A stretch of DNA of 60,716 bases, the filler included. It is 4 parts of 4 records of this genome, joined end to end, with 100 filler letters (N's around TTAATTAATTAA, not from the genome) between each part and the next. Parts side by side here need not be neighbours in the genome. Positions count along the whole stretch, not along the records: positions 22,151 to 43,508 come from SRR2962707_4382; 3 more parts are not named here. One strand, given 5' to 3'. The translations under genes and the position numbers were made by a program. The notes beneath the pieces are model-generated. The model saw only the letters and a list, made by a program, of their open reading frames with translations, had not been told where the DNA came from and made no database searches. Position 1 is the stretch's first letter. Each line of letters opens with the position of its first letter. Shown here in pieces: positions 1,220-35,027 of the stretch.

Positions 1220-1268
1220 TAAGTTTACGCAATTATTACCTAGATACCTGCATAAAGCCCCGCGCTTT

Positions 1269-2027: not shown

Positions 2028-2031
2028 CCTT

Positions 2032-6120: not shown

Positions 6121-6139
6121 ACACAGTTAACTAAAATCT

Positions 6140-6870: not shown

Positions 6871-6871
6871 A

Positions 6872-8770: not shown

Positions 8771-8808
8771 TAACTTGTCCGTTTTGATGCGTTTTGTTGA
8801 TTGTGGGC

Positions 8809-8846
8809 CTAATCGGCTATTTTTTCAAAGAAAAATAACCGATTAG
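8809..8846. terminator. Hairpin downstream of the RND gene (terminator-like or intergenic palindrome)
   Basis: CTAATCGGCTATTTTT-TCAAAG-AAAAATAACCGATTAG is a near-perfect inverted repeat. Confidence 0.6.
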
Positions 8847-8860
8847 TACAAGTAACGAGG

Positions 8861-11800
8861 TTAAACTTGCTCTAACTCCTGAGCTAATTGTTTAGTTTCA
8901 TCACCCCGAGGTGAGGTAAAACGCGCAAGACCTAAGTAAATAACGGGCGTTAAATACAAGGTAAATAATACCGCAAGTGATAAGCCACCAAACACCACCC
9001 AACCGATAGCGTTGCGTGCTTCTGCCCCTGCGCCAGTTGATAATATGAGCGGCAACGCGCCAAGTAAGGTAGATACTAAGGTCATAGTGATTGGTCTTAA
9101 ACGAACCAGTGCCGCTTGCTCAACCGCTTTACGTACCGTTAAACCTTGATCTCGTAATTGATCGGCAAATTCAACCAGTAAAATCGCATTTTTAGCAATT
9201 AATCCTATTAGCATCACTAAGCCTATTTGCGAGTAAATATTAAGAGAAGTCCCCGTAAGATACAGCGCTAGGATTGCCGAAGTGATACCAAATGGAACGG
9301 TGATCATCACCACTATCGCGCTGTTTACGTTTTCAAATTGTGCCGCCAACACTAAGAACACAATTAAAAATGCCAGTATGTAGGTAATAAACACTTCATT
9401 AGAGGTTTCTTCAAACGTTAAAGCTTCACCTTTGAATGCTAAGCTAATACCACTTGGCAAAGTTTGCTCTGCAATATCCCGGAGCTGCGAAACTAGCTCT
9501 GCAATACTCATATCTTCTGGCAATTCCATGTCCAATTCGATAGCGCGGCGCTGTGCATGGCGCTCAAGCTCTGCGGCAACACCTTCTTCGCTAATAGTTG
9601 CAACACTGCTCAATGGTACGAGTCTGCCATTTGATGCACTGACATAGAGGTTTGCTAAATCACTGGGATCATTAATGGTTTGATTTTGTGCTTGCAACAT
9701 AATAGGCACTGATTGATCACCAATATTGAGATCGGCAATATCATCGCCGTTAATTGCAGCACGCAATGTCACTGATATATCACTTAATAAAACACCTAAT
9801 TCATCAGCGCGGCGTCTATCTATATTAACGCGTAACTGCGGTTGAGATGGTTGATATGAAATTCTAACATTATCAATGGCCGGAATTTGCTGCTCAACTT
9901 GGGCTGCAAATTGCTGTGCGGCTTTATAAATTTGCAGGTAATCTTGCCCTAATAACGCCAGTTCAATGCCGCCACCTTGACCACGTAAATTTAAACTATT
10001 TGAACCATTTGGGTAGCCTGCTGCACCGGGCACATTGCCCAATGGAGTACGGATTTTATTGATGATCTCTTGCTGGGTAAAATGGCGTTCGTCCCAATGC
10101 TTTAATGGCACGGTGATAAACACGATATTAGGATCCCATTGCCCTACTACAGTATAAATGGATTCTATCTCACCGCTTTCTACGTACGGCAATAAAATGT
10201 CTTCCATTTGCATGGCTTGTCTGTCCATAAAGTTTAACCCAACGCCATCAGGTCCACGGGCAAAGATACGAATTTTTCCGCGATCTTCTGATGGGAGTAA
10301 CTCATTGTCTAAATTGACATACAAAGCACCAGAGCCCGCTGCAATCAATACGCACGCTGCAAACGTTAGCCATGCGTGATCAAGCACCCAATGAATGGTT
10401 TTAGTGTAAACATTAGCAAGCCAATGGCCTATTTTTGCAAACGGGTGTTTTCCCCCTTGCTTAAGTTTTAGTTTAGAGGTTAATGCAGGAACCAAGGACA
10501 GTGCGACAAAACTTGAGATGATCACCGCGCCCGCAAGCACTCCACCAAACTCTCTAAATAGCCGCCCTGCGGTTGAAGGTAAAAATGCGATGGGTACAAA
10601 TACGGCAGCCAACACGGCAGTTGTGGCAACGACCGCAAAAAATACTTCTCGGGTGCCCACCACGGCAGCAGCGCGTCGGCCAAGACCTAAACCACGTTGG
10701 CGTTGGATATTTTCGCTGACCACAATCGCATCATCTACAATTAAACCAGTTGCAAGCACTAATGCTAACAGCGTAAGTATATTGATTGAAAAACCCAGCG
10801 CCCAAATCAAGGCTAATGAACCAATCAAGGCAACAGGAATGGCAAATGCCGGCACTAGAGTTGCCCGCCATGAGCCAATAAATATCCACAACGTAATGAT
10901 CACTAATAATACAGTGAGTACTAATGAAGAGATCACCTCATCAACTGAGCTTCTAATAAACTGAGCATCATCCGATGTCAGGGTAAATTCAAGCTCAGGA
11001 AAACGTGTTTGCATTTTCGCTAATAAACTTAACACTTCATCGGATATCTCAATGGTATTTGATTGTGCTTGACGGATAACTTCCATGCCAATCACAGGTT
11101 GGCCATTTAAACGCACCATAGAGCGTGGATCTGCGGGGCCAAAATACACCGCTGCAATGTCGCCAATACGCGTACCATCGCGAATGATAATATCCGCTAC
11201 TTGCTCTGCTGTGACTGATGTAGCATCTGCGCGAACAATAATTTGTTGATCCGATGACTTTAAACTACCCGCGGGTACATCAAAGGGAGCTTGGCGCAGC
11301 ACACGTGCCACATCGGGGACCGTTAAATTAAAACTGGTTAATTTAAGAGGATCTAATCTTACCCGTAATACTCGTTTGCGGTCGCCATTTAAGCGTACAT
11401 CGGCAACCCCTGGAATAGTTAAAAACTGCGGGGCTAAATCAACCTCAACTAATTCAGTTAAGGCCTCAAGTGCTAATGACTCACTGGAAACGGTTAACGA
11501 CACAACAGCTTCAGCATCGTTATCCGCTTTGATTATAGACACTCGCTCAACTTCTTCAGGTAAATCACGTTGCACACGCGCAACTGACTCACGGGTTTCA
11601 TTTGCGGCATCATCAAGATCAACGCCCGCACGAAACTCAACCACAATTCGCGCACTACCTTCTTCACTTTGTGCACGAATCGTTTTAACACCACTGACTC
11701 GCGCAACAGCACCTTCAAGTTTACTGGTTACCTCGGTATCAACCGTCTCAGGTGAGCCACCTGGAAAAGAAGCCGATACAGTGATCCTTGGCGTATCAAC

Positions 11801-11935
11801 ATCGGGCAGTTCACGTACTTCAACCCCCGCTATGGCAGCAATACCTGCGATTATAATTAATAAGTTAAGGACGACTATCAATACTGGGCGGCGAATTGCC
11901 ATTGACGGCAGGTCATGAATCATAGGTGATTGCAT
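8861..11935 (-). CDS. RND efflux permease (AcrB/AcrD/AcrF family)
   Basis: 1024 aa; motifs GLIVDDAIVVSEN, GLIAKNAILLVEF, RLRPITMT. Confidence 0.95.
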   Translation of the reverse strand: MQSPMIHDLPSMAIRRPVLIVVLNLLIIIAGIAAIAGVEVRELPDVDTPRITVSASFPGGSPETVDTEVTSKLEGAVARVSGVKTIRAQSEEGSARIVVEFRAGVDLDDAANETRESVARVQRDLPEEVERVSIIKADNDAEAVVSLTVSSESLALEALTELVEVDLAPQFLTIPGVADVRLNGDRKRVLRVRLDPLKLTSFNLTVPDVARVLRQAPFDVPAGSLKSSDQQIIVRADATSVTAEQVADIIIRDGTRIGDIAAVYFGPADPRSMVRLNGQPVIGMEVIRQAQSNTIEISDEVLSLLAKMQTRFPELEFTLTSDDAQFIRSSVDEVISSLVLTVLLVIITLWIFIGSWRATLVPAFAIPVALIGSLALIWALGFSINILTLLALVLATGLIVDDAIVVSENIQRQRGLGLGRRAAAVVGTREVFFAVVATTAVLAAVFVPIAFLPSTAGRLFREFGGVLAGAVIISSFVALSLVPALTSKLKLKQGGKHPFAKIGHWLANVYTKTIHWVLDHAWLTFAACVLIAAGSGALYVNLDNELLPSEDRGKIRIFARGPDGVGLNFMDRQAMQMEDILLPYVESGEIESIYTVVGQWDPNIVFITVPLKHWDERHFTQQEIINKIRTPLGNVPGAAGYPNGSNSLNLRGQGGGIELALLGQDYLQIYKAAQQFAAQVEQQIPAIDNVRISYQPSQPQLRVNIDRRRADELGVLLSDISVTLRAAINGDDIADLNIGDQSVPIMLQAQNQTINDPSDLANLYVSASNGRLVPLSSVATISEEGVAAELERHAQRRAIELDMELPEDMSIAELVSQLRDIAEQTLPSGISLAFKGEALTFEETSNEVFITYILAFLIVFLVLAAQFENVNSAIVVMITVPFGITSAILALYLTGTSLNIYSQIGLVMLIGLIAKNAILLVEFADQLRDQGLTVRKAVEQAALVRLRPITMTLVSTLLGALPLILSTGAGAEARNAIGWVVFGGLSLAVLFTLYLTPVIYLGLARFTSPRGDETKQLAQELEQV

Positions 11936-11940
11936 CCTTG

Positions 11941-12957
11941 CTACTCCTGTACGTTTGCAAGTGGCTGCACAAACTCAAGTGCTTGCGCTGGACGAAGTCG
12001 TTGCACGCCTTCAACCACTAAAATATCGTCTTCAAGTAAAGGGCCAGAAACCAATAAACGACCCGCTAAACGTTGCTGAATTTTCACATCAACGCGCGTG
12101 GCTTTTTGCTCAACACTTTTCCAAACGTATGGGCCCGTAGCGCCCCACAGTAATGCCGCTTCCGGCACTGCCGCATAACGTTCACCTTGAATTTCTATAT
12201 GCACTCTAAAACTCATACCAGGTAAAAATTGTGCGTTTTTATTCTCTAATTTTGCTTTGACCCGCAACGTACGCGTTTGAGGATCGATTCGTGAATCAAG
12301 GTAAGCAACCTTAGCATTAACAGCAGTACTGCCTTGCCATGGAATAACCTGCACATTTGCGCTGTTTCTGAGCATACTAATTGCTGATTCTGGCGCGTTA
12401 AAATTGATATACAAAGCACGGGTATCATCAATACTGGCGATGGCCGTTTGTGTGGTGATACGGTCACCAACTTCCACATCAGTTAACCCCATAGTGCCAC
12501 TAAATGGCGCACGGACTTGGCGATCTTGTAATTCAGTTTCAGCTTTGGTGACTGCCACTTTTGCTAACTCGTACACGGTTTTAGCATCGTCTAAGTCACT
12601 TTGCGGAACCGCACCTTTTGCATGACTTTGCTGTAAACGAGTTTGGATACGCTCGCTATCAGCAAGCTTTATTTTCGCTTCGTTTAATGCCGCTGTTTGT
12701 CTACGCGAATCAAGTTCGAGTAACACAGCACCAGATGATACTTGATCGCCGGGCTTAAAATGTACCGCTGTCACCTTATCACCTACTGCAGGATATAGGA
12801 TTACGGAGCGGATAGCTTCAGCATTACCAACGGCTTGCACTTGCTCTTTGGCATGTTCCATCGCAACGTGTTCTACAAGTACATTGGCAGCCAATGCCGA
12901 AGGTACAACCGCAGCACAGCAAAAATAAACACAGGTTATAAGCACGCGAAATTTCAA
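11941..12957 (-). CDS. RND periplasmic adaptor (membrane fusion protein)
   Basis: Signal peptide; motifs VRAPFSG, IDPQTRT, VPEAAL, VVEG. Directly upstream of the RND permease. Confidence 0.93.
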   Translation of the reverse strand: MKFRVLITCVYFCCAAVVPSALAANVLVEHVAMEHAKEQVQAVGNAEAIRSVILYPAVGDKVTAVHFKPGDQVSSGAVLLELDSRRQTAALNEAKIKLADSERIQTRLQQSHAKGAVPQSDLDDAKTVYELAKVAVTKAETELQDRQVRAPFSGTMGLTDVEVGDRITTQTAIASIDDTRALYINFNAPESAISMLRNSANVQVIPWQGSTAVNAKVAYLDSRIDPQTRTLRVKAKLENKNAQFLPGMSFRVHIEIQGERYAAVPEAALLWGATGPYVWKSVEQKATRVDVKIQQRLAGRLLVSGPLLEDDILVVEGVQRLRPAQALEFVQPLANVQE

Positions 12958-12985
12958 AAGATCACCTAATTAATTATTATTTCCA

Positions 12986-13085
12986 NNNNNNNNNNNNNNN
13001 NNNNNNNNNNNNNNNNNNNNNNNNNNNNNTTAATTAATTAANNNNNNNNNNNNNNNNNNNNNNNNNNNNNNNNNNNNNNNNNNNN
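12986..13085. other. Artificial contig spacer (Ns with TTAATTAATTAA linker)
   Basis: 100-nt N block with a six-frame stop linker at 13030-13041. Base composition changes abruptly across it. Confidence 0.98.
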
Positions 13086-13592
13086 TTTGTCACCCACGAT
13101 CAGGAAGAGGCGCTGACCATGTCAGACAGGATCGCGGTGATGAGCGGCGGCCGCATCCGCCAGATCGGTGGCCCGCGCGAGATTTATGATCAACCCGCCG
13201 AACGCTTTGTCGCGGATTTCATAGGCGATACCAATTTCCTGCCCGCCGAGATGATTGCCCGCACGGGCGACAGCGCTCAACTACGGCTGGGGCAGGGGAC
13301 AGAGGTGACGGCCCGCGCCGGTCAGATCGACAAGACCAGCGGTTCTGTTACCCTTGCGATCCGCCCCGAACATGCCCGCCTTGTCACGCCGGACGCGGGA
13401 CAGTTGACGGGCACGCTGGAAGATATCGTTTATTTCGGCACCGACACGCATTTTCACATTCTGCTGGACGGCATCGGCACGCGTTTTGTTCTGCGCCGTC
13501 AGAATGCGCCGGATGAAACGCGCGCGGTGCAGCAGGGCGACAAGGTGGGGGTCGCGCTGGCGGCCTCGGCCGGTCAGGTGCTGAAGGATTGA
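13086..13592 (+). CDS. Polyamine ABC transporter ATPase (PotA-like), 5'-truncated
   Basis: [19 protein letters not shown] (H-loop), FVADFIG, and a C-terminal TOBE-like region. Confidence 0.9.
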
Positions 13593-13596
13593 TGCC

Positions 13597-14481
13597 ATGA
13601 GCCCCGCCCGCACCCGTGCCGCCCTTCTTGCCCCCGCGATCATGATACTGCTGTTTGCCGCTGCCGGACCGCTTGTTATCGTGCTGGTTTACTCCCTTTT
13701 GACGCCCGGCGACTATGGTGGCGTAATCTGGAAATTTTCGCCCGACGCCTGGTTCGGGGTTCTGACCGAACGCGACTTTTTCACCGAGCAGCTAAGCTTC
13801 GCCGACGCACATCTGATGGTGTTCTGGCGGTCGATCAAGCTGTCGTTGATGACGGCGTTTTTGTCGCTGATCATCGGCTTTCCCACGGCCTATTTCATCG
13901 CGACACGTTCACGCCGCAGCCGGGATATCTGGATGCTGCTGATCATGATACCGTTCTGGACTAACCTGTTGATCCGCACCTTTGCGATCATGGAACTGAT
14001 CCGCAACGAAGGCACGATCAACACTGTTCTAATCGCCATGGGTCTGGTCACGCAGCCGGTGCAGATGCTGTATACCGAATTTTCGCTGCTGGTGGGCATG
14101 ACATACGTCTATCTGCCGCTGATGATCCTGCCGATCTATGCGTCAATGGAGCGGCTGGATTTCAGCTTGGTCGAAGCGGGCTATGATCTTTACGCCACCC
14201 GCTGGCAGGTTCTGCGGCGGGTGATCTTTCCGATGGTGAAACCGGGCGTGGTGGCGGGATCGATTCTGGTCTTTGTACCCTGCCTTGGCGCCTATGTGAC
14301 GCCTCGTGTTCTGGGCGGGGGCAAACAGCTGATGCTGGGCAACCTGATCGAACTTCAGTTTGGACAATTGCGCAACTGGCCGCTGGGGGCGGCGTTGTCG
14401 CTGACGCTGCTGGTGATCGTGATGGTGGCGCTGATCTTTTATGTCCGCGCTGCAGGGAATGAGGGCAACGCCCATGGCTAA
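13597..14481 (+). CDS. Polyamine ABC permease (PotB-like)
   Basis: IPFWTNLLIRTFA, YLPLMILPIY, EAA-like loop LVEAGYDLYA, NWPLGAALS. Confidence 0.9.
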   Translation: MSPARTRAALLAPAIMILLFAAAGPLVIVLVYSLLTPGDYGGVIWKFSPDAWFGVLTERDFFTEQLSFADAHLMVFWRSIKLSLMTAFLSLIIGFPTAYFIATRSRRSRDIWMLLIMIPFWTNLLIRTFAIMELIRNEGTINTVLIAMGLVTQPVQMLYTEFSLLVGMTYVYLPLMILPIYASMERLDFSLVEAGYDLYATRWQVLRRVIFPMVKPGVVAGSILVFVPCLGAYVTPRVLGGGKQLMLGNLIELQFGQLRNWPLGAALSLTLLVIVMVALIFYVRAAGNEGNAHG

Positions 14482-22151: not shown

Positions 22152-24026
22152 GGCATGCACTACACCTCGGTGCCCAATATTCTCAAAGTGCTCAATCCGC
22201 TGTTTCTCGATGATCTGCATGAGAAGCTGGACGACGCGGGGGACAACGCCCGCAAGCTACTGAATCTGCGTAACCGCATGGCGCGCATCCGCGTCTTTGA
22301 TCCCGCCTGCGGCTCGGGCAATTTCCTGGTCATTGCCTATAAACAGATGCGAGAGATCGAGGCGGTGATCAACGAACAGCGCGGCGAGCAGGGTCGCAAA
22401 AGCGATATCCCGTTGACCAATTTCCGTGGCATCGAACTGCGCCACTTTCCCGCCGAGATCGCCCGGCTGGCGTTGATCATCGCCGAGTATCAGGCCGACG
22501 TTGTGTATTGCGGCCAGAAGGAAGCACTGGCGGCGTTCCTGCCGCTGGATCAGGACAACTGGATCGTGCAGGGCAATGCACTGCGGCTGGACTGGCTCAG
22601 TGTATGTCCGCCGACAGGTACGGGCGTAAAGCATCGGTCCGATGATCTGTTCGAGACGTCGCTAGAACAGGCGCAGATCGATTTTTCGAATGAGGGTGGG
22701 GAGACGTATATTTGCGGGAATCCGCCGTATCTGGGAAGCCAACGGCGAAGCTCCGACCAACAGGATGAGATGAGTGAGGTTTTTTCCAGCCGAACTTCCT
22801 CTTACAAGGACTTGGACTATGTGGCGGCTTGGTACATGAAGGCCGCAGACTATTGTTCTAGCGAAAATGCAGAAGCTGCTCTGGTGGCTACAAAGACAAT
22901 ATGCCAGGGTGTTCAAGTTGCGATGCTTTGGCCGCTCATATTCTCAAGCGGACTTAAGATAAAATTTGCATATAGACCGTTTTCTTGGAGAAATCTGGCT
23001 TCCAACAATGCTGGGGTAACTTGCGTAATTGTCGGCTTAACCAAGAGTCCGCCGGTTAATAGGCGACTGTTTGATGGCAACCATGAATCTGCCGCAACTA
23101 ACATTGGGCCATATCTCCTTGATATGGCAGATTTGGTTATAGCAAAGTCATCCGTCGCCCTTTCCGAACTGCCCACAATGGATTATGGCAACAAACCAGC
23201 AGATGGTGGGCATCTAATTTTTGAACGAGAAGCATACCGAGATATTGTGGGGAGATTCCCGGAATCAAAAAAGTTTATCAAGAAATATATCGGATCTATA
23301 GAGTTTATTAGTTCTAGTTTTAGGCACTGCCTATGGATTAGAGATGATGAGCTTTCGCAGGCTCTGAAAATTCCGGAAATTGCAGTTAGGCTGGAAAATG
23401 TTCGGGCTACGAGGTTGGGCAGTAAAGGAAAGCAATCTAACGACCATGCGGATCGATCACACAGATTCGTCTACACTCCGCACCGTGACCTAAAGGCTCT
23501 GGTCATCCCACGGGTTTCCTCTGAGAATCGTCCTTATCTGCCCGTCGGATTTGTGGATGCGGATGTCATTATTGCCGACACCGCAGCTGCTCTCTATGGG
23601 GCCTTGCCTTGGCATCTTTCAATAATTGCAAGCCGGCTGCACCACCAATGGATTGCGAATGTGTGTGTCCGGCTACGGACAGACTTTCGCTACTCTAATA
23701 CCCTTGGCTGGAACACTTTCCCCGTTCCGGCTCTTACCGACCGCAACAAGGCCGACCTGACCCGTTGTGCCGAAAATATCCTGCTCGCTCGTGAAGCACA
23801 TTTTCCCGCCACCATTGCCGATCTCTACGATCCTGAGACCATACCCGCCGACCTTCGCGCGGCCCATGACCGCAATGACGAGGTGCTGGAGCGCATCTAT
23901 ATCGGCCGCCGCTTCCGCAATGACACCGAGCGCTTGGAAAAGCTGTTCGAGCTCTACAGCAAGAAGGTCTCCAACGATGCCGGCAAGCTGAAGCCCAAGG
24001 GCAGGAGCGCGCGGGCCAATGGCTGA
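22152..24026 (+). CDS. MmeI/YeeA-like (Type IIL-type) N6-adenine DNA methyltransferase with TRD, 5'-truncated
   Basis: GMHYTSVPNILKVLNPL, motif I FDPACGSGNFL, motif IV GNPPY, and a MmeI-like C-terminus (IPRVSSENRPYLPVG, RYSNTLGWNTFP, LYDP, AHDRND, ERLEKLFELY). Confidence 0.9.
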   Translation, partial: GMHYTSVPNILKVLNPLFLDDLHEKLDDAGDNARKLLNLRNRMARIRVFDPACGSGNFLVIAYKQMREIEAVINEQRGEQGRKSDIPLTNFRGIELRHFPAEIARLALIIAEYQADVVYCGQKEALAAFLPLDQDNWIVQGNALRLDWLSVCPPTGTGVKHRSDDLFETSLEQAQIDFSNEGGETYICGNPPYLGSQRRSSDQQDEMSEVFSSRTSSYKDLDYVAAWYMKAADYCSSENAEAALVATKTICQGVQVAMLWPLIFSSGLKIKFAYRPFSWRNLASNNAGVTCVIVGLTKSPPVNRRLFDGNHESAATNIGPYLLDMADLVIAKSSVALSELPTMDYGNKPADGGHLIFEREAYRDIVGRFPESKKFIKKYIGSIEFISSSFRHCLWIRDDELSQALKIPEIAVRLENVRATRLGSKGKQSNDHADRSHRFVYTPHRDLKALVIPRVSSENRPYLPVGFVDADVIIADTAAALYGALPWHLSIIASRLHHQWIANVCVRLRTDFRYSNTLGWNTFPVPALTDRNKADLTRCAENILLAREAHFPATIADLYDPETIPADLRAAHDRNDEVLERIYIGRRFRNDTERLEKLFELYSKKVSNDAGKLKPKGRSARANG

Positions 24027-24225
24027 GCGGTTTCAACCCGGCGGAGATGCCAAAGTGATCGCAGAGATCGCCCGAACCCGGTTCGGCGGCTTCACCGAAA
24101 TGTTCGAACACCACGGCTGGCCCGAACGTGGGTCGGACATGATGCGCAAGGTCCAGACCCGTGTGGCCGAGACCTATGGCAGCGTCCGCGCTTTCGAAGC
24201 CCAGTTCAACAAGGACAGGCCATGA
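24019..24225 (+). CDS. Small hypothetical protein coupled within the methyltransferase operon
   Basis: 68 aa; AGGAG upstream. Overlaps the MTase stop by 8 nt and the helicase start via ATGA. Confidence 0.7.
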   Translation: MAERFQPGGDAKVIAEIARTRFGGFTEMFEHHGWPERGSDMMRKVQTRVAETYGSVRAFEAQFNKDRP

Positions 24226-26288
24226 CCATCGAAACGAAAGCTGTCCCATCCGTTTCGGTCACTTACGCCCGCAATGGCCGCTCGACCAAGGCCAACGAGC
24301 TGGGCATGCGCCCCATGCAGGAGCGCGCCTATGACCATCGCGGCGAACAATACCTGCTGATCAAATCGCCACCGGCGTCGGGCAAGAGCCGCGCCCTGAT
24401 GTTTGTTGCGCTCGACAAGCTGCACAATCAGGGCTTGAAACAGGCGATTATCGTCGTGCCGGAAAAGTCGATCGGCTCTAGCTTTGCCGACGAGCCGCTG
24501 AGCGATTACGGCTTCTGGGCCGATTGGTCGGTGGCACCGAAATGGAACCTCTGCAACGCCCCGGGCGAGGACGGCGGAAAGGTCAATTCGGTCGAGGCGT
24601 TCCTCAAGAGCGATGACCGCATCCTGGTCTGTACCCACGCAACCTTCCGTTTCGCAGTGGACCGCTTCGGTATCGAGGCCTTCGATGACCGGTTGATCGC
24701 AGTGGATGAATTCCACCACGTCTCCTCCAATCCCGACAACAAGCTGGGCGCGCATCTGGGTCAGTTCATCGCGCGCGGCAAGGTCCACGTCGTCGCCATG
24801 ACGGGCTCCTATTTCCGCGGGGATTCCGAAGCCGTGCTGTCGCCTGCCGACGAGGACAAGTTCGTCACGGTCACCTACACCTATTACGAGCAGCTCAACG
24901 GTTACGAACACCTCAAGCACCTCGACATCGGATATTTCTTCTATTCGGGTGCCTATGCCGACGACATCCTGAAGGTTTTGAAACCCGCTGAGAAGACCAT
25001 CATCCACATTCCCAGCGTCAACTCGCGCGAAAGCACAAAGGACAAGATCCGCGAGGTCGAGCACATCATCGAGGCGCTCGGCAGTTGGGAAGGGGTCGAT
25101 TCAAAGACCGGATTCCAGCTCGTGCGGACCGAAGACGGCAAGCTTCTGCGCATCGCCGATCTCGTGACCGACGACCCGGGCAAGCGCGACATCGTTTCCG
25201 CCGCACTCAAGGACTCCAGTCAGAAGACCAACCGCGACCACGTCGACATCATCATCGCGCTTGGCATGGCCAAGGAGGGTTTCGACTGGATCTGGTGTGA
25301 GCATGCCCTGACCATCGGATATCGCTCGAGCCTGACAGAGATCGTCCAGATCATTGGCCGCGCCACCCGCGATGCCCCGGGCAAGACCCGCGCGCGCTTC
25401 TCCAACCTCATTGCCGAACCCGATGCCACCAGTGAAACGGTTACCGAAGCGGTCAACGATACGCTCAAGGCCATCGCCGCCAGCCTCTTGATGGAGCAGG
25501 TGCTGACGCCACGTTTCGAGTTCAAGCCCAAGAACCCCAGCAATGAGGCTGCGCCCGGCTTCGATTACGGCGAGAACGGATACGACCCCTCCAAAGCCAA
25601 TATCGGGTTCAACGAAGAGACGGGCCGCATCCAGATCGAGATCAAGGGGCTGGCAGAGCCCAAGAGCGAAGAGGCCAAGCGGATTTGCCGCGAGGACCTC
25701 AACGAGGTGATCGCGACCTTCGTCCAGGACAAGCGGAACTTGGAGCGCGGCCTGTTCGACAGCGAAGTCGTCCCTGAAGAGCTGACCGTGTCCCGCATGG
25801 GCAAGATCATCAAGGAGCTTTATCCCGAGCGCGATGAGGAGGATCAGGAAGCGATCCGGCAGCACGCGATAGCCGCGCTCAACCTGACTCAGCAGGCCAA
25901 AAGCACGCTAACCGGCGGTGGGGCAGGGGGCGCGCGCGAGGAAGAGACGCTCAACACCGCGTTCATCCAGGGCGTTCGTCGCTTCGCCATGAGCGTCAAG
26001 GAACTGGACATCGATCTTATCGACCGCATCAATCCGTTCGGCGAGGCCTACAAGATCCTCGCCAAGGCCATGAACGAAGAGAGTCTCAAGCAGGTCGAGG
26101 CGGTGATCGCGGGTAAGAAGACCAATCTGACCCCCGAGGAGGCCCGCGACCTGGCTCGACGTGCCCTGCGCTTCAAGCAGGAACGCGGTCGGCTGCCCTC
26201 CATCTCTGCGCAGGATCCCTGGGAACGACGCATGGCGGAAGGCGTAGCGTATCTCGCGCGCATGAAAGCCGAGGCCGCCCGTGTCTAA
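24222..26288 (+). CDS. YeeB-like SF2 DEAD/DEAH-box helicase/ATPase
   Basis: Walker A SPPASGKS, motif II VDEFHH, MTGSYFRGD, MAKEGFDW, QIIGRATRD. Confidence 0.9.
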   Translation: MTIETKAVPSVSVTYARNGRSTKANELGMRPMQERAYDHRGEQYLLIKSPPASGKSRALMFVALDKLHNQGLKQAIIVVPEKSIGSSFADEPLSDYGFWADWSVAPKWNLCNAPGEDGGKVNSVEAFLKSDDRILVCTHATFRFAVDRFGIEAFDDRLIAVDEFHHVSSNPDNKLGAHLGQFIARGKVHVVAMTGSYFRGDSEAVLSPADEDKFVTVTYTYYEQLNGYEHLKHLDIGYFFYSGAYADDILKVLKPAEKTIIHIPSVNSRESTKDKIREVEHIIEALGSWEGVDSKTGFQLVRTEDGKLLRIADLVTDDPGKRDIVSAALKDSSQKTNRDHVDIIIALGMAKEGFDWIWCEHALTIGYRSSLTEIVQIIGRATRDAPGKTRARFSNLIAEPDATSETVTEAVNDTLKAIAASLLMEQVLTPRFEFKPKNPSNEAAPGFDYGENGYDPSKANIGFNEETGRIQIEIKGLAEPKSEEAKRICREDLNEVIATFVQDKRNLERGLFDSEVVPEELTVSRMGKIIKELYPERDEEDQEAIRQHAIAALNLTQQAKSTLTGGGAGGAREEETLNTAFIQGVRRFAMSVKELDIDLIDRINPFGEAYKILAKAMNEESLKQVEAVIAGKKTNLTPEEARDLARRALRFKQERGRLPSISAQDPWERRMAEGVAYLARMKAEAARV

Positions 26289-27483
26289 ATTCACCGATGA
26301 AGACGATGCGCTTCTGGGCGAACTCGGCGTCGAGGTTGAGCCGCTCAAACCGGTCAGTCGCTCCCCCCGAGAAGAGCGTATCATTGCGGGCTTCGAAGAC
26401 ATCCAGCGCTTCGTGGAAGAGCATGGACGTATCCCTCAACACGGTGAGGAGCGCGACATTTTCGAGCGCCTCTACGCGGTCCGCCTCGACCGCCTGAGGG
26501 ATCAACCTGAATGCGTGGCGCTGCTCGAACCCCTGGATCATCAAGGGCTTCTGACGGGCAAAAACATCGAGACCGCACCAGTCGACGAGCTCGACGATGA
26601 CGCCTTGCTGACCGAGCTGGGTGTCGATGAGGACCGCGACGACGACGTCACCACGCTCCGTTTCGTTCGCTCCAGCGCGGAAAAACGTGCTGCAGAGGAG
26701 ATCGCGAACCGGGAGAAGTGCGAGGATTTCGAGAAGTTCGCACCGCTATTCGAGGCCATTCAGCGCGACCTCGACACGGGTGCCCGAGCGACCCGACCCT
26801 TCGTGAAGGACTCCGGCTTCCTGAAAGCTGAGATCACCCAGGGCCAGTTCTTCATTTTGGGTGGGCAGGTAGCCTATGTCGCCGAAGTCGGAGAACCGAT
26901 CAAGGCGCCGAACGGCGAGACTGACGCTCGCTTGCGCCTGGTGTATTCCAATGGCACTGAGAGCAATTTGCTACTCCGCTCGCTCCAACGCGCCCTCTAC
27001 AAGGACGAAGGCGGGCGCCGGATCACAGAACCCAACGCCGGGCGGCTCTTTTCCCAGGAGGTCGCGGACGACGATTTGGCCAGTGGCCTCATATACGTCC
27101 TGCGCAGCAAGTCCGACGAACCCTATGTCACCCAAAATCGGGAACTGCTTCACAAGATAGGTGTCACGGGTGGCGATGTCCAAAAACGTATTGCCAACGC
27201 GCGCCGCGATCCTACGTTTCTCCTCGCTGATGTCGAAGTCGTCGCCACCTACAGGGTTTACAACGTCAACAGGACGCGGTTGGAAAATCTCATTCACCGA
27301 GTGTTCGGCGCCGCACGTCTCGACGTCTCGATCGCCGACCGATTTGGCACTCCGGTCGTTCCACGAGAATGGTTCTTGGTCCCTCTGTTTGTGATCGAGG
27401 AAGCCGTCGAACGCATCACAGACGGGACGATTACCGACTGGTGGTACGATCCGTCCCAAGCGAAGTTAGTTGCTGCTCAATAA
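26281..27483 (+). CDS. YeeC-like GIY-YIG/T5orf172 nuclease
   Basis: C-terminal GLIYVLRS..LHKIGVT..VQKRIANA..LENLIHRVF..PREWF. Overlaps the helicase stop. Confidence 0.87.
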   Translation: MSKFTDEDDALLGELGVEVEPLKPVSRSPREERIIAGFEDIQRFVEEHGRIPQHGEERDIFERLYAVRLDRLRDQPECVALLEPLDHQGLLTGKNIETAPVDELDDDALLTELGVDEDRDDDVTTLRFVRSSAEKRAAEEIANREKCEDFEKFAPLFEAIQRDLDTGARATRPFVKDSGFLKAEITQGQFFILGGQVAYVAEVGEPIKAPNGETDARLRLVYSNGTESNLLLRSLQRALYKDEGGRRITEPNAGRLFSQEVADDDLASGLIYVLRSKSDEPYVTQNRELLHKIGVTGGDVQKRIANARRDPTFLLADVEVVATYRVYNVNRTRLENLIHRVFGAARLDVSIADRFGTPVVPREWFLVPLFVIEEAVERITDGTITDWWYDPSQAKLVAAQ

Positions 27484-27833: not shown

Positions 27834-27898
27834 GTGGCAGCTTTGCGCCCCAATTGCGGCCGTTGCCGTTAGGATGACCGCTGCCGATAAGAGGACAT
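27834..27898. repeat. Short imperfect palindromes (GxCxGCT...GCGGxC type) upstream of the large-protein cassette
   Basis: GTGGCAGCTTTGCGCCCCAATTGCGGCCGTT and ATGACCGCTGCCGATAAGAGGACAT. They resemble the element at 34906-34927. Confidence 0.4.
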
Positions 27899-28277
27899 AG
27901 GGGACGCGCAGCGCCGGGGCACCTTTGCGTCTAGGAGCGGACCTCGAATGCTTTGCCTACTGTGAACGACGTATAACCCATCGCCAATTGGCCGGTTGGT
28001 ATCTGGATGCGCCGCACCGGGGACAAGCTACACTTCGACAGTTGATTGCAGAACGCATCGACGCCAATGGGGCGTGTTGTTCGGACCTGTACCGTTCTTT
28101 CGCAAGTCTTTGTGGGGAAGTCGTGTTAGCAGTTGCATTGAGACGACGAGACCGGTGCAATGGCCTCTATTCGATCTGTTTACGACCTAACCTTCGACGG
28201 GTGTCGCGAATCGTAGCGGAGATACACCCGTTCTATTTTGGGGGCGCGTTCTGGTTAGCCTGATACGTCCAAAGGCA

Positions 28278-31200
28278 ATGCCTGCGAGCCTGACCGCGCA
28301 CGTCATCTTCGTGCACGGTCTCGATGGCGCGCCGTACGGAACTTGGCTGTCAGGTTCGAGTGAGAAGGACTTCTGGCCGGAGTGGCTGGAGCAGGACATC
28401 CCCAACGTTGTTGTCTGGAGCCTCGGGTATGAGGCAACCTCCACATGGTGGAAGAAAGGTGCCGCGCTTGCGCTACCGGACCGCGCGACGAGCATACTGC
28501 CCAGGTTGGTGAATGAACCGGGCCTGCGTACCGGAGACATCTACTTCGTTGTGCACAGTCTTGGTGGACTGGTTGTGAAGCAGGTCCTTCGCTTCGCCGA
28601 AGCCCAAGCTCCACATTCCGCCGATGCTGCGCAGTTTCTGCGGAGAGTTCGCAAGATTGCGTTCATCGGGACGCCCCACGGCGGATCAGATCAGGCGTCG
28701 TTCGTGAACCGACTTGGATTGCTTTTGTTGCCTCGCGCAACGACTGCCGGATTGTCTCGCAATGATCCCCATCTCCGCGATCTGAACGTTTGGTTTAGGA
28801 GCTTTGCTGACAGGAACAGCGTCGACGCTCTCGTGATGCACGAAACTCAGCGGGTGTCTTTTGCGGGAATCCCCGGACTAGGTGGGATCGTTGTGAAAGC
28901 CGACAGCGCCGATCCTGGGCTCTCTCCGGCAACGAACGTGATCCCGATCGTGGCGGACCACTTCAGCATCGTGGCCCCGCGAAATCGCGAGGCGGATGCC
29001 TATCAGAACCTGCTCGCATTTCTCGCAAAGCCCACAACCGGAAAGCACGTGGACACGCTCATCGCTGATACAATCGCTGATGTCGGCGAGGTCGTTGAGC
29101 GGCGCACTGACAAGCTATCGTCCCAAATAGATGCGTCCCGCATCGATATCATGGCGGCAATCGAAGGCGCTCAACGCCCGCGATCTGCCGGTGAGAACGC
29201 GGTTGTCACGGCCGAGTTGGAACGACGCCTGTCTACACTGCGAAAATCGAGATACGTCGTCGGCTATGACGCTCCCGGGGAAGCCCGGCGCCTCGCAAAG
29301 CAGTTGGCAAGCGGCGGAGATCTGGAGGCTGCGTCAGGTGCTTCGAGGGGTATTGCCTACGCGTGGTGCGCCCGTATCTTGGCTGCAGTCGACTTGGACG
29401 TAGCGGAGCAATGTCTGGATGAAGCAAAAGCGCTGGGCGCTGGCGAAGAGAACGTGATTGCAGGCGCTTTCATCGTAGCGTTTCGCAGTCAAAACGCATC
29501 TGCTGGACTTGCGATGCTGGCTGGTATTGCCACACAGCAGGTCAACACGGCGCGCTTCTTAATCGCAGCCAACAAGAAGGAACCGGCGGAGGCGATAAGG
29601 TGGCTGCAGGAGGCTGGCCTTTCTGCTGCTGACCTGGATAGCGACGGCCGTTTCGGTGTCATCCAACGACTTATCGCTTCGGGTGACATCGACCAAGCTC
29701 TGACTGATGTCGCAGCTTTGACTGAGACAGACTTCGAAGCGACGCCTTTGCTTCTTCACTCTGCCGCAATCACGCACCTGGCGGCCGCGATCCATCCCGA
29801 GCTACGTGGAGGTGTGCTTGAGCACCTTCCGATTGGTCTCGATGAGTTTCCGCTGAACTCGACGACGGACGCGCTTGAGCACCGGACACAAGCCAAATCA
29901 TTCTACGAGAGGTCTCAAGAAGCATTTCTGCGCTTGGGGCAGGTCCGAGCGGCCAATATGAGCTCGGACTACGCGCTGTGGCTGTCACTTAGAGATGCGG
30001 AGAGCCGTGCGGCGGCTTGCCGTGTTCTTGAAACGAGCATGTCGGACCCACAGCATCGCCTGAGGCGCTTGCCGATAGCTCTCCTATTCGGCGTTAAGCT
30101 GGATAAGAATGCCGTCGAGCTTGAGCTGGAGCGGGAAGCGACACGAACCGGTGGCAAGTCGGCCGAACTCGCAGTTGCGAGATTTGCGATGGCGAGATCG
30201 CAATCTGATGAGGCAGAGGTTGCGGTCTATATCGAGAAGTATCGCGACCAACTGACTGAATATTTCAATCCTACGTGGATACAGGCGATCGAAGTCGAGA
30301 CGCTTGCAAGGTCAAAACAGCTCGACAAGGCTCGTGCCGTCCTTTCGGAAGTTGAGAAGCAGGACGTTCCGGCCGCGACCATAGAAAGCCTTCGGCGGAT
30401 AGTCGCGGATGAAGCGGGAAGCGATCCGATCGAGAGCGCCGAAGCTGCTTATCAGAAGGGCAAAGGCTTTCCGGACCTTCTAACCCTGTTCGACACTCTG
30501 CGGACACACAGGGCCTGGGCGAAGCTTGCGGTGTACGGAGAGGAGCTGTTTGAACAAACCGAAACAGCGTCGCATGGGTTTGTCTACGTCGAGGCGCTTT
30601 ATCGGTCTGGTAGGTACGCCGACGTGCTCGACGTGGCCTCTCGGTATCCGGCGCTTGCTGCTCTGGCTACCATCAAACACATTCAGGCATGGACCCATTT
30701 CCGTCTGGGCGACCTCGTTGCGGCGAAGAGATTGCTGGAGGAGAGCCGGGCGGACTCTGACAACGAAAGCACTCGAACGCTTGAGAGCAACATCGCGACC
30801 GCGTCAGGCGACTGGAGCGCCCTAAACGTATTCGTTGAGACACAATGGGATCGTCGCGACGAACTATCCTCCGCTGAGTTGCTTCGTGCGGGCAGTCTGG
30901 CCCAGCATATTGGCTCTACTCGGGACCGCGATCTGATCACCGAGGCTGCCCGCAAGGCCGATGGTGATCCTGGCATACTCATTAGTTGCTACACGGCTGC
31001 CATCGCCACCGGATGGGAAAGCGCTGAGGAAATCCACGCCTGGTTCGTCACTGCCGAGGCGAACTCGGGTGCCGATGGGCCGGTGCAGCGGTTCGACTTC
31101 CGCCAGATATTGGACATGGCGCCGGATTGGGATCGTCGAGAGAACGACGCCTGGGATCAGCTGCTCAGAGGCGATCTGCCGATGTACGCGGGAGCGTTCT

Positions 31201-32894
31201 TGGTCAACCGGTCGCCGCTGGAAATGTTCACGATGACCGCTCTAGCGAACGTCGACCAACCGGATCCTCGAAAGCGTGGTGTGGTGTTCGCCTACAGCGG
31301 TGCGCGACCTATTGTTGAGGTGACAGGGAAGTGCGTGGCGTTCGACGTTACCGCGCTTCTCGATCTCGCGTTCGTCGGTCAGTTGTCGAACGCGTTTGCG
31401 CATTTCGAACGCGTCAGGCTCTCGCACCGAACGATGGGTTGGCTGCTAGAGCAACGTCGCGCGGCTCGCTTCCATCAACCCAGTCGCATTCGCGACGCGG
31501 AGGAAATTCGGCGCTTGGTCGACTCCAAAGGGTTGGTGCCCTTTGAGCCGACCGATAGGCCGAACGTGGCGCTTGAGACCGAAGTAGGTGAGGACCTTGC
31601 GTCGATGCTGGTCGCAGCATCGACTTCTACCGCAGCGGGTACGCCAAGCTTCGTGGTTCGTCCCTTCCCGGTTCACAAGCCGGGCAGTCTCATGGAAGAG
31701 CAATCCGACGTCAGCGGCTACGAGCCAGCAATCATTTCGTGCGGTAGCGTGGTTGCCGCCCTCAGGCGCCTTGGTCATCTGACTGAAGCGGAGGAGGCTC
31801 GCGCAATCAAGCATCTCTCGGCGCACGAGGGCGTGTGGCCTCATCAGATTGGGTTAATTCCGCAAGGGGCTGAGCTGTATCTTGATGATGTAGCGGTTAG
31901 CTATTTCCAGTTTCTTGGTCTTCTTTCCAAACTCAAGACGGCGGGGTTCAAAGCTCGCATTTCAAAGAGAGAAGTCTCATTGGTGGACGCGCTCTTGGAT
32001 CGGCATGCCTACACGGTTGCTCTCGACGACGTCATTGAGGACATTCGCGCGGCCGTTCTCAATGGTGTCCGGTCGGGCCACATCCGGCTGGGACTCCAGG
32101 CCGCAACTGATTCTGACGACGATACGAGCGATCCAACTGAGCAGCCCACCATCGGGCTGTTTGCAGTGTCTGACGCTGATGCGTTTGTCATCGATGACCG
32201 GTTCTTTAATCAACATGGATCGATCGATGTTCCATCAGGTCGCCGACCAGTGTTCACATCTTTGGACATTCTAGACGCGTTGAGAGTAAAGGGGACGATC
32301 TCGGACAGAACGTTTGGGGAGGTGCTAACGCGCCTGCGGCGAGGTGGCTTCCTGTTGATGCCGATCCTACCAACGGAACTTGAGGCCGCTCTGACGAGTG
32401 CCAGTGTGGCGGATGCGGCTTTGGTCGAGAACGCGGAACTGAAGGCTATTCGAGAAGGGCAACTAAAAAGCCGGATGCTTGATGTGCTCCAGCTTCCCAA
32501 AGAGTCTCAGTGGAACGACGGAAATCTTCAAGTCGTCATCAATTCGCTTCGCAGGCAGTGGCGAGCGGACGTCGCTGACGACGTGTCGAGGGCTCGGTCT
32601 GAATGGCTATTGCCGTTTTTGGATCAACGGGGGTGGGCTCATAGATCCCCCCCCGATCGCCCACCAGCGGACGAACGTCGGGCCGCTCAGGTCCTTCTGG
32701 TTGCGCAGCTGCCTGGATCGGAGAAGAGTGTGCGCCAGCGATATGAGGACTGGTTCGAACACGTCGTCCTCGAACCCGTCAAAGACCACGAACCAAGGGT
32801 CTATGAGCGGGTCCTGCAAATCGCCCGTAGAATTGTGGAAGCAACGGCAAACCGGGAAATGCCAGAGCTCGATGACGACGGGGACGACGCGTGA
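28278..32894 (+). CDS. Large multidomain protein: alpha/beta-hydrolase + TPR-like repeats + PIN-like C-terminal region (putative defence protein)
   Basis: IFVHGLDG, nucleophile elbow VHSLGGLVVKQ, FIGTPHGGS and ADHFSI; an Ala/Leu-rich helical repeat middle; PIN-like acidic motifs VAFDVTALL, LYLDDVAV, FVIDDRF. Confidence 0.75.
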   Translation: MPASLTAHVIFVHGLDGAPYGTWLSGSSEKDFWPEWLEQDIPNVVVWSLGYEATSTWWKKGAALALPDRATSILPRLVNEPGLRTGDIYFVVHSLGGLVVKQVLRFAEAQAPHSADAAQFLRRVRKIAFIGTPHGGSDQASFVNRLGLLLLPRATTAGLSRNDPHLRDLNVWFRSFADRNSVDALVMHETQRVSFAGIPGLGGIVVKADSADPGLSPATNVIPIVADHFSIVAPRNREADAYQNLLAFLAKPTTGKHVDTLIADTIADVGEVVERRTDKLSSQIDASRIDIMAAIEGAQRPRSAGENAVVTAELERRLSTLRKSRYVVGYDAPGEARRLAKQLASGGDLEAASGASRGIAYAWCARILAAVDLDVAEQCLDEAKALGAGEENVIAGAFIVAFRSQNASAGLAMLAGIATQQVNTARFLIAANKKEPAEAIRWLQEAGLSAADLDSDGRFGVIQRLIASGDIDQALTDVAALTETDFEATPLLLHSAAITHLAAAIHPELRGGVLEHLPIGLDEFPLNSTTDALEHRTQAKSFYERSQEAFLRLGQVRAANMSSDYALWLSLRDAESRAAACRVLETSMSDPQHRLRRLPIALLFGVKLDKNAVELELEREATRTGGKSAELAVARFAMARSQSDEAEVAVYIEKYRDQLTEYFNPTWIQAIEVETLARSKQLDKARAVLSEVEKQDVPAATIESLRRIVADEAGSDPIESAEAAYQKGKGFPDLLTLFDTLRTHRAWAKLAVYGEELFEQTETASHGFVYVEALYRSGRYADVLDVASRYPALAALATIKHIQAWTHFRLGDLVAAKRLLEESRADSDNESTRTLESNIATASGDWSALNVFVETQWDRRDELSSAELLRAGSLAQHIGSTRDRDLITEAARKADGDPGILISCYTAAIATGWESAEEIHAWFVTAEANSGADGPVQRFDFRQILDMAPDWDRRENDAWDQLLRGDLPMYAGAFLVNRSPLEMFTMTALANVDQPDPRKRGVVFAYSGARPIVEVTGKCVAFDVTALLDLAFVGQLSNAFAHFERVRLSHRTMGWLLEQRRAARFHQPSRIRDAEEIRRLVDSKGLVPFEPTDRPNVALETEVGEDLASMLVAASTSTAAGTPSFVVRPFPVHKPGSLMEEQSDVSGYEPAIISCGSVVAALRRLGHLTEAEEARAIKHLSAHEGVWPHQIGLIPQGAELYLDDVAVSYFQFLGLLSKLKTAGFKARISKREVSLVDALLDRHAYTVALDDVIEDIRAAVLNGVRSGHIRLGLQAATDSDDDTSDPTEQPTIGLFAVSDADAFVIDDRFFNQHGSIDVPSGRRPVFTSLDILDALRVKGTISDRTFGEVLTRLRRGGFLLMPILPTELEAALTSASVADAALVENAELKAIREGQLKSRMLDVLQLPKESQWNDGNLQVVINSLRRQWRADVADDVSRARSEWLLPFLDQRGWAHRSPPDRPPADERRAAQVLLVAQLPGSEKSVRQRYEDWFEHVVLEPVKDHEPRVYERVLQIARRIVEATANREMPELDDDGDDA

Positions 32895-34821
32895 CCGAGT
32901 CGAAACAAAAACGTCTCAAGGCGGTTGCGGCGCTACTCAACTTTCACGAGGCGCTACGCGAAGATATCGTTGACCTGCCGGGCTTCAAGCAAACCTTAGA
33001 CATCCCATCGGAGGCGGAACTTACCTTCGGCGCTTTAGGCCTCGCCTTCCTGCGGTCGACGTTTTTCAACGCACTTCGCGAGCTATACGCGGATCGGTCG
33101 CATGTCAGGACTGTCGTCGCCGAAGACGGACGTTCTTGTGGACTTGCGCTGAGAGTTGACGACGACCGGACGATCGTCGCTTGCAAAGTTGGGACAGAGA
33201 CCTTTGAGCTTCCAGGGTTCACTATGGTTTCACCGAAGGCATCGGACCGGCTAGCTGAGTTCGATCGGATCGCTGAGCGCGACTTCGTACATGACGCTTC
33301 CGCGAACATGTGGCGGCAACGTCTCGAGGACGGCCGTTGTCCGACGCGGAGGTGAGTCAACTGATGGGCGAACTAGAACAGAGTCCGGTTCGCATTCGGG
33401 AAAAGATTCGCGCCGATGCGAAACTCGGGAAGGCGTCGACCCCCACAATCATCCCGCATAGCCGAGCGTACTTTCAGCGCTTAGTCGGCTCGTCGCTCGG
33501 TAAGACCGAACTTGGCGACTTTGTTTCCGGGCCTTGCAAAGCCCACATTGAAGCGTTGCTGCGATGGGATCCAGCAGTCGGGTTTGGCTTGGCGCTTCTC
33601 GTCGCAGGGGGCCACTCCACCATTTCCGAATTAGTGGAACTTGGCGAAAGGCCAAAGGCGGATGTCGTGACCGCCTATGAGTGGCTTGCGGATCGAGGGG
33701 ATCGGTTCTCGCAGATCGCTGGGGTGGAGATCGGCATACGATCGATCGCCACCCACCCAAGCATAGAGGGTAGCCTCATCAGAATGATCGAAGAGATTAG
33801 GGACGAGGATGTCACCGCCGATGATAGTCGGTTTGCCCTCACTGCCAGCTTGTTCGTGCTTGTCGATGGCGAGCTGTCACGACGTAACCTGATGCTCGAC
33901 GAACCACCGTACTGGCGAAGGCTCGCCGCGTTGGCCCAGGCCTCGATGTTTGAACGCGAACTCGTCTTGAGCCACGTCCAGATTGAATCGTTCTCGCAGT
34001 GGGCGACAATGGGTAGGGGTGGCGACTTCCTTGTGCAGGCGCTGGCCGATTTGCGCGTCGAACCGAGATGGCTCCCGAATTTCATGTCTCCAGAGCGGCT
34101 TAAAGACGAGGCGATTTCGCGAATCGTCACCGCAGGAAATCGGCTTGAGGACAACGAAGGATCGGAAAAGCTTCGCGCTCTGTTGAAGGGAGACGGCGAA
34201 GAGGGGCTGCGAGCTCGGGTGAAATTTCCTATGTCGTACTTGCCCGGGCCATTGGAGGGAAAGACCATCCCAGCCATGGAGCTGCCGGCCGAGCTAGTTG
34301 ACGACCTGCGAGGCGAGAAGGATAGCGAGACGCTCGACTCTCAATCGCTCGCGGGACTTGTGAACTCAGCTCTCGTGTTCCGGATTACCGAAGAGCACTC
34401 GCGGCTCGCGGGAGAGGCACTGAAGAAGGTGCGGCACCAAGTTGCTATGGGCAACAGCGACGGAGAGTCATTCGCTTTACTGGTAGGCTTGGCCACCGTT
34501 GCTGCGGTTACCCGTGCGCCAGAACTTAGCAAAGATGTTCGCATCCTCGCCCGCGTTCTCCGGCGGCGACCCGGAACTCATTTCGACGTTGACGCCCTAA
34601 TACGCGTTGGCCTGATAGCTTCGGCAGCGAACCCTGAACTCAAAGCGTGGTGCGAGTCGGTCGGGGCATGGTTTGTGGAGATCGCCCAGGAGGAGATGAC
34701 CGCGGAAGATGCCTTTGGCCTTCGCCAGCACCTTCGGAAACTTTGCACTGTTGTCCCAGACCTTTGGCCCTATGTTGGCAAGGCGGATGCGGCCTTGGCT
34801 GCGGTTGCGCAAGCCGCGTAG
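32891..34821 (+). pseudogene. Partner gene of the large protein, split by a 1-nt frameshift near 33332-33336 (real lesion or assembly error)
   Basis: GTGA overlap with the upstream stop. ORFs 32891-33355 and 33310-34821 join as ...RLEDGPLSDAEVSQL... if one C is added to GACGGCCGTTG. Confidence 0.7.
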
Positions 34822-34905
34822 CGATGGCCGAAGGCGCGGAAGGTGGCAACGGGAGTGCACATCGCCAAGCGAAGTCAGCAAACCTCTTCGTATAAGTAAC
34901 TGGGT

Positions 34906-34983
34906 TCCGCTTTGGGCCACAAGCGGATCCAAGGCTATTCCGTCGGGGTGTCTGCTTGTCGCCGAGCACCGCTAATAGCCGAC
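34906..34983. repeat. Short palindromes downstream of the large-protein cassette
   Basis: TCCGCTT-TGGGCCAC-AAGCGGA (perfect 7-bp stem) and GTCTGCT...AGCCGAC. Confidence 0.45.
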
Positions 34984-35027
34984 AGTCTGCAAACGGCCCC
35001 TTCCTCGCCGGGCAGCTCGCCACGACG

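Follow-up and report, generated by a model that had tools for sequence, protein, structure and literature searches.

We identified, at positions 28278-34821 of a 60,716-nucleotide (nt) stretch of DNA joined from parts of four records of one genome (the window), a gene pair that is probably a two-gene, split member of the TPR-GreAB-C-PIN (TGP) systems, with a lipase-like effector and the core on a large gene (gene A) and a detached C-terminal module on a frameshifted partner gene. The initial annotation, made from the sequence alone, regarded the pair as undescribed and held that a full match to a named system would remove the novelty; the Pfam families that the core matches, however, take their names from the TGP system reported by Kaur et al. 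2021 (PMC8195603), and most of the novelty therefore falls away. Its reading of the pair as a defence or abortive-infection system stands as the predicted function. The kind is already known and named in Pfam, and the locus adds a member. An anonymous 6.5-kb gene pair is now placed in a family whose biology is just beginning to be tested, and public annotation of such pairs still reads "hypothetical protein". Our survey adds that the core is always accompanied by the second module, either fused or next to it, that the two co-evolve, and that a sizeable clade carries a lipase-like effector. Cloning the large gene alone, as the annotation invites, would probably omit a required subunit, and for this genome the copy is likely dead.

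According to the description by Kaur et al. (PMC8195603), the constant region of TGP combines TPR repeats with a GreA/B-C domain and a novel version of PIN, to which EAD10 or one of 13 effector domains is fused at the N-terminus; the idea put forward is that RNA polymerase is sensed through the GreA/B-C domain. A 2024 preprint (10.1101/2024.11.07.622273) uses the name TGP for the architecture and reports that Bab/Agp of Escherichia coli ECOR25, the one member with reported phage protection, defends the cell against T5 through abortive infection, with T5 defence lost in GreA/B-C and PIN mutants of Agp.

Effector and core of gene A

Gene A is an open reading frame (ORF) of 1538 amino acids (aa) on the plus strand at 28278..32894, as initially annotated, and its assignment as effector and sensor core of a TGP-type system draws on its translation and on homologues of aa 900-1538. 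All of the motifs quoted from it lie where they had been placed: HGLDG (aa 13-17), VHSLGG (aa 92-97, nt 28551-28568), GTPHGGS (aa 131-137) and ADHFSI (aa 226-231) at the N-terminus, and FDVTALL (aa 1022-1028), LDDVAV (aa 1202-1207) and IDDRF (aa 1305-1309) in the PIN region. Pfam yields two domains, DUF676 and HTH_upst_double_PIN.

The annotated alpha/beta-hydrolase is a real domain, DUF676/PGAP1-like and lipase-like, at aa 1-300 (28278..29177, plus strand). DUF676 matches aa 9-137 with 22.9 bits against a cut-off of 20.3, and the PADLOC model DUF626_VIII (PDLC02918), the sole PADLOC match of gene A, covers aa 7-300 of the hydrolase part with E 1.3e-25. H13 and G14 of the HG oxyanion motif, the nucleophile S94, D209 and H228 are invariant in all 15 aligned hydrolase-bearing homologues, and D212 is kept in 14 of the 15. 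The domain thereby joins a Pfam match above cut-off to a Ser-Asp-His triad with a nucleophile elbow, in which D209 is probably the catalytic acid. Solved lipases gave weak profile matches only (E 0.014-0.36), located at the nucleophile elbow (alpha/beta hydrolase 8hfw, E 0.014; lipase 5ah0, E 0.36), phmmer of the domain against PDB sequences gave 0 matches, and NCBIfam held no family for gene A or its partner. In having Ser, Asp and His, HG and GxSxG-like motifs and an N-terminal position on an immune-type sensor, the domain is like the hydrolases of the DUF676/PGAP1/SERAC1 type; the SesB-like alpha/beta-hydrolase effectors of fungal NLR proteins are a parallel to this N-terminus.

The following region, aa 301-940 (29178..31097, plus strand), is helical and possibly TPR-like. 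A helical array thus stands in the architecture as annotated, but its TPR identity is weak: all TPR matches in gene A were below threshold, and TPR_19 came near threshold in some homologues. No P-loop NTPase family was detected in gene A at E<=0.01, aa 300-880 having been searched by sequence only, which agrees with the annotated lack of a canonical Walker A. The string ATRTGGKS at aa 621-628 (30138-30161) fits the Walker A pattern, in a region predicted as helical by context only; of its residues, G626 and S628 recur in 14 of 15 homologues while position 621 and K627 vary, and the string was ruled out as a conserved motif. The bacterial NLR-like STAND proteins, including Avs, have a modular effector on a repeat-rich sensor, swapped effector classes and an abortive-infection logic; gene A differs from them in that no P-loop NTPase domain was detected.

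The core proper begins with a helix-turn-helix (HTH) domain at aa 941-1010 (31098..31307, plus strand), which matches PF24407 (HTH_upst_double_PIN) with E 1.4e-17 and 64.2 bits against a cut-off of 27. Downstream of it on the same strand lie a first PIN-like alpha/beta domain (aa ~1016-1189, 31323..31844) that holds FDVTALL and FHQPS, a second PIN domain (aa ~1197-1359, 31866..32354) in the region of PF20698 (PIN-TPR-GreABC), supported by homologues, conserved residues and structural search, and a C-terminal helical domain (aa ~1363-1526, 32364..32855). The AlphaFold2 model of the first domain has a beta-alpha-beta pattern with a predicted local distance difference test (pLDDT) score mostly >85. 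The annotated PIN-like region is borne out, since its motifs lie inside a confident model (pLDDT 88.3) and PIN domains top the structural search; the VIA alignments to PIN domains begin at model residues 135-140. Foldseek of the core model against PDB returned nothing at E<=1e-3. Among the 15 hydrolase-bearing homologues FHQPS (1065-1069) is invariant, and the conserved acids of the first domain are D/E1023, E1058 (14/15), E1102 and E1141. E1184, D1306, D1307, N1311, H1313 and D1330 are likewise invariant, with D1203 present in 14. Both the HTH upstream of a double PIN and, through its homologues, the PF20698-type PIN are hallmarks of the TGP core.

The second module and the family survey

The start codon of the partner, a GTG at 32891, overlaps the stop codon of gene A (TGA, 32892-32894), so the annotated GTGA overlap is real. 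The second gene of ~640 aa is coupled as proposed, but it is present here as two ORFs of 154 and 503 aa in different frames. The 5' piece (32891..33355, plus strand) runs for 154 aa to a premature stop and holds a small alpha/beta domain, a candidate Pfam Permuted_GreAB-C; the 3' piece (33310..34821, plus strand), an all-alpha solenoid, shows homology from ~33334. A fused homologue of 2013 aa (P0030) aligns with the 5' piece over residues 1390-1520 (E 7e-9) and with the 3' piece over residues 1516-2005 (38% identity, E 2e-104). End to end, the two pieces correspond to residues 1390-2005, and the guess that the partner is a detached C-terminal half proved correct. The 3' piece is 94% identical to an intact 643-aa homologue (P0124), whose model (pLDDT 89.9) has a small alpha/beta domain at aa 43-107, coincident with Pfam's location of Permuted_GreAB-C, and then an all-alpha solenoid. 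Foldseek of the partner model against PDB gave nothing at E<=1e-3; fold searches gave generic helical matches only, filled by the helical part, and the partner profile found nothing meaningful, and no GreA, among PDB sequences. Searches of a protein atlas returned leads of low score only. A complex prediction of gene A aa 1190-1538 with P0124 gave no answer (score 0.00, partner fold uncertain) and is evidence neither way.

The break is the loss of one base at 33331..33332 (plus strand) relative to two related loci in blastn alignments, L001 (Devosia rhodophyticola) and L002 (Xanthobacter autotrophicus, 75% identity, in frame at this point). Independently assembled contigs of runs X1 and X2, which are possibly the source runs of the window, reproduce it exactly, including the deletion, at a word depth of ~390, whereas a contig of the unrelated run X3 carries an extra G at the break. 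The frameshift is therefore real in that DNA and not common to its relatives. Programmed frameshifting at 33331 was rejected, there being no slippery motif or heptamer at the site and the relatives being in frame. It is most likely that this copy is disabled or impaired, because the deletion cuts the partner after the GreA/B-C-like domain.

A search with aa 900-1538 gave 350 homologues at E<=1e-3 among 7999 scored candidates, and 120 of these were listed. PF24407 was found in 120/120 and PF20698, described as the "PIN domain associated with the TPR-GreAB-C-PIN system", in 115/120. The five listed homologues without PF20698 include the four closest listed relatives of gene A, which points to a divergent PIN domain in this clade. 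Twelve homologues scanned with Pfam had the order effector, HTH, PIN, and those 1900-2230 aa long also have Permuted_GreAB-C, ~270 aa beyond the PIN. No E. coli member was among the listed matches. P0022, a homologue of 1094 aa and thus of Agp's length, was considered as a proxy for Agp and rejected as an N-truncated HNH-type member that is 81% identical to P0057.

The initial annotation had proposed looking for swapped N-terminal effectors, for fusion with the partner and for enrichment near defence genes. Swapping was found, with six domain kinds on one core: the N-termini of the 120 listed homologues carry DUF676 in 10 and Abhydrolase_6, PNP_UDP_1, HNH_2, Metallophos and SMEK_N in single or few cases, while those of 68 genome-locus cores comprise 20 alpha/beta-hydrolases, 13 HNH, 2 metallophosphoesterases, 1 PNP_UDP, 1 TIR, 1 SMEK and 30 without a Pfam match. 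A variable effector before a constant core is the arrangement of TGP. When 69 cores are placed on a FastTree tree, the effector labels switch at least six times, and a TIR form sits inside an HNH clade with 98% support. The clade of the window's core (98% support) has 18 rows, 16 of them with a hydrolase and all of them split. The fused or split state changes 10 times for 12 fused rows; L027 (split) and L038 (fused) are sisters with 100% support.

Homologues of the partner that stand alone at ~640 aa are common. There were 316 matches at E<=1e-3 among 8000 scored candidates, and a library of 1.84 billion cluster representatives gave 1394 at E<=1e-3 and 711 at E<=1e-30; the best 150 of the 1394 comprise 126 stand-alone proteins and 24 longer ones with the module at the C-terminus. 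Of 80 partner-seeded genome loci, 12 were fused, 52 were split into two complete, neighbouring genes, and 16 were broken or cut by a contig end; none of those with upstream DNA lacked the core. Among 80 core-seeded metagenome loci, 66 were split and adjacent (64 by script and 2 on inspection), 11 fused, 2 ended too early and 1 was broken, so that the module is present in 77/77 informative loci. Fusion with the partner thus occurs in 23/160 loci. Counted from the first base of the core stop codon, a start codon is found between -17 and +8 nt in 51/52 split loci, 19 of which have the 4-nt overlap seen in the window. Pairwise distances of core and partner correlate with r = 0.957 over 64 loci, a value reached by 0/999 permutations. 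The second module is therefore constantly present, tightly coupled to the core and inherited together with it. We found neither this constancy nor the hydrolase clade in the literature, and the source data of Kaur et al. 2021 may hold both.

In ~12/80 genome loci (L001, L005, L012, L016, L028, L033, L046, L050, L052, L056, L062 and L070) the core or the partner is in pieces or truncated, which points to a system that often decays, or to errors of assembly.

Mobility, alternative explanations and proposed mechanism

The gene pair lies in a cassette at 27845..35000 (no strand assigned) that the window shares with locus L001, on the D. rhodophyticola chromosome, at 98.2% nucleotide identity in one blastn alignment of 7157 columns, whereas the flanks are unrelated; between window positions 20001 and 42000 there was no other match at E<=1e-20. 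This shows that the cassette has moved by recent horizontal transfer. Neither flanking repeats nor target duplications appeared at its boundaries, and scans for promoters and terminators did no better than chance. The two copies differ by three indels, one upstream, one at 32647 and one at 33331/33332. The second is a one-base loss in L001 (L001:9758, equivalent to window 32647) that shifts the frame of the last ~82 codons in its large gene. Each of these near-identical cassettes thus carries a single break, but not in the same gene, and the partner of L001 is whole. The same pair also occurs on a conjugative Agrobacterium plasmid, where it adjoins an integrase and a VapBC pair and the annotation of either gene reads "hypothetical protein". 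Homologues of P0022 were found in four plasmid records and in no phage record at E<=1e-5.

The gene pair shares with published TGP a fast-evolving core with PIN, a helical array that is possibly TPR-like and a putative GreA/B-C-type domain, a wide but sporadic distribution, and HNH, PNPase and TIR effectors (PMC8195603). Bab/Agp is similar in that a TGP protein is sensor and controller of a cell-killing effector with a presumed membrane target, and it lies in a defence island. The Bab/Agp effector, however, is described as a separate 109-aa Bell-domain protein that acts through amyloid templating by an N-terminal motif of Agp, whereas the lipase-like hydrolase here is part of the same protein as the core; and the account of the 1094-aa Agp mentions no second module, whereas a partner module is present here (10.1101/2024.11.07.622273). 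The homology of Agp (OWC60848.1), an archetype of the system alongside WP_017307658.1, and the gene A core rests on a shared family name, and the two are set side by side by description; the distances from Agp D762 to its end (332 aa) and from gene A D1203 to its end (335 aa) are length arithmetic and not a test.

Several points weigh against membership in TGP, and the domain order, the constant second module, the low scores of the window's own domains and the use of the Pfam names in print would fit instead, in line with the initial annotation, a distinct two-gene system that has only a PIN-type domain in common with it. In the published systems GreA/B-C precedes PIN in a single protein and the systems are "mostly standalone genes" (PMC8195603), whereas the "permuted" GreAB-C-like domain here follows two PINs in a ~640-aa module that is a separate gene in most loci and constant in all 77 informative ones. 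Kaur et al. do not list an alpha/beta-hydrolase among the effectors in their main text, the Bab/Agp preprint was the only literature found that uses the Pfam names, and no experimental test of this exact sub-architecture was found. PMC13092281, 10.1101/2024.01.29.577857, PMC12881547, PMC10907252 and 10.64898/2026.10.19.760177 contain nothing on TGP or matched through chance words only. Two scores from the window are below threshold, those of PF20698 in gene A (13.2 bits against 27.8, E 0.11) and of PF24388 (Permuted_GreAB-C) in the 5' piece of the partner (19.1 bits against 27, aa 49-93); homologues at 55% and 43% identity reach 37.4 and 42 bits for PF20698 over the same columns, and fused homologues 31-40 bits for PF24388 at the equivalent place. 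Finally, the ratio of nonsynonymous to synonymous substitution rates relative to L001 is higher in the partner pieces (0.33 and 0.46, on few changes) than in gene A, whose value of 0.215 counts in favour of the TGP reading; from these ratios both genes appear to have been under constraint until recently. A distinct system is nevertheless unlikely, for HTH_upst_double_PIN, PIN-TPR-GreABC and Permuted_GreAB-C together make up exactly this architecture, one of them is named for TGP, and the effector repertoire of HNH, PNPase and TIR overlaps the published one (PMC8195603).

The strict co-occurrence and translational coupling of the two genes would also fit a toxin-antitoxin pair in which the partner silences the PIN or lipase of gene A, and PIN domains are the classic toxins of VapBC pairs. 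Gene A has, like those toxins, a PIN fold with conserved acidic residues. In place of a small antitoxin upstream of a stand-alone PIN toxin, however, the PINs lie inside a 1538-aa protein and the partner is large (~640 aa), downstream and often fused, in 23 of the 160 loci, which an antitoxin that needs degradation or release could hardly tolerate. Gene A is intact and the partner broken in contigs at a word depth of ~390, so that loss of the partner is not lethal, and L001 shows the reverse, with gene A broken and the partner intact. An antitoxin role is accordingly very unlikely. Even less credible is a housekeeping factor in RNA processing or transcription. GreA/B-C-like and PIN domains also serve normal transcription and RNA turnover, and 9/20 surveyed loci had no PADLOC match among their six nearest ORFs. 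Yet PF24407 occurs in 0/300 other genomes of the class of genome G001, a near-identical cassette sits in another genus between different flanks, the pair is carried on a plasmid, effectors are swapped recurrently, and ~12/80 loci have a gene in pieces. PADLOC matches at E<=1e-15 were found for 25/120 of the nearest ORFs (six per locus, 20 loci), or 23 without the generic ABC-ATPase model mad3, against 3/35 housekeeping ORFs of the window (two of them mad3), a control that is small and from a single genome and so limits the case for the enrichment that had been anticipated. Among the kinds matched are AbiE, type I and type IV restriction, AbiL-like, Hma-like and Sng/Brx-like. At L019:595-16049 and L023:2363-16103 the pair lies inside a type I restriction-modification operon, with methylase or specificity genes upstream and the restriction subunit downstream.

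It could also be that the window's copy still works despite the frameshift, either with three separate polypeptides or by reinitiation at 33310. In favour of this, the deletion sits at a boundary between domains, downstream of the GreAB-C-like one (aa 43-107 in the P0124 model), the family tolerates splits between modules, and start codons are present in the 3' ORF. Such function has a small chance of being retained, given that 0/52 whole split loci are divided at this position, that the loci with a partner in pieces (L005, L062 and L070) are broken at other places, and that the site has no slippery heptamer while its relatives are in frame.

For the TGP-type pair, the family literature points to a mechanism in which the core would sense infection by detecting hijacked RNA polymerase through the GreA/B-C-like domain, the PINs would act as RNases that cleave transcripts, and the core would then release the N-terminal effector as a suicide device (PMC8195603). 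Sensing by the TPR array, as put forward in the initial annotation, would be an alternative to this proposed detection of RNA polymerase. Since the effector belongs to a lipase-like family of Ser-Asp-His hydrolases, membrane lipids are its likely target, and their hydrolysis may kill the cell and abort the infection. We tentatively suggest, as a possibility rather than an expectation, that TGP systems of this branch are obligate two-module machines, with an RNA-polymerase-sensing ~640-aa module that is universal, separable and repeatedly fused and split, and a double-PIN protein that carries the effector.

Upstream operon and other features of the window

The pair is flanked in the window by genes for a BCCT transporter and an IclR regulator and follows a restriction-modification-like operon of three genes (22155-27483, plus strand). 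Gene 1 of this operon encodes an MmeI-family methyltransferase and target-recognition protein without the N-terminal nuclease (PADLOC REase_MTase_IIG at positions 314-910 of 912). Gene 2 (24222-26288) encodes a DEAD/ResIII helicase with a C-terminal PMBR repeat, and gene 3 (26281-27483), whose start overlaps the helicase end, a T5orf172/MUG113 protein. The operon may be an unusual restriction-like system in which the helicase and T5orf172 replace the missing nuclease.

Immediately before gene A, a Cys/Arg-rich ORF of 112 aa (27925-28263, plus strand) was rejected as a gene, being conserved only in the near-identical L001 and having no family match; this interval is probably an untranslated leader or the promoter region of gene A.

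Elsewhere, across positions 1-14000, the G+C content rises from ~0.40 (1-10 kb) to ~0.58 (from 14 kb), inside or beside an RND efflux operon (AcrB-like, 8861-11935; HlyD-like, 11941-12957), and this step may mark a foreign island or a join made in assembly. At 2032-4208 (minus strand) a Methyltransf_33 (histidine-specific methyltransferase) gene adjoins an FGE-sulfatase/DinB_2 gene, a pair that presumably recalls the ergothioneine synthesis genes EgtD and EgtB.

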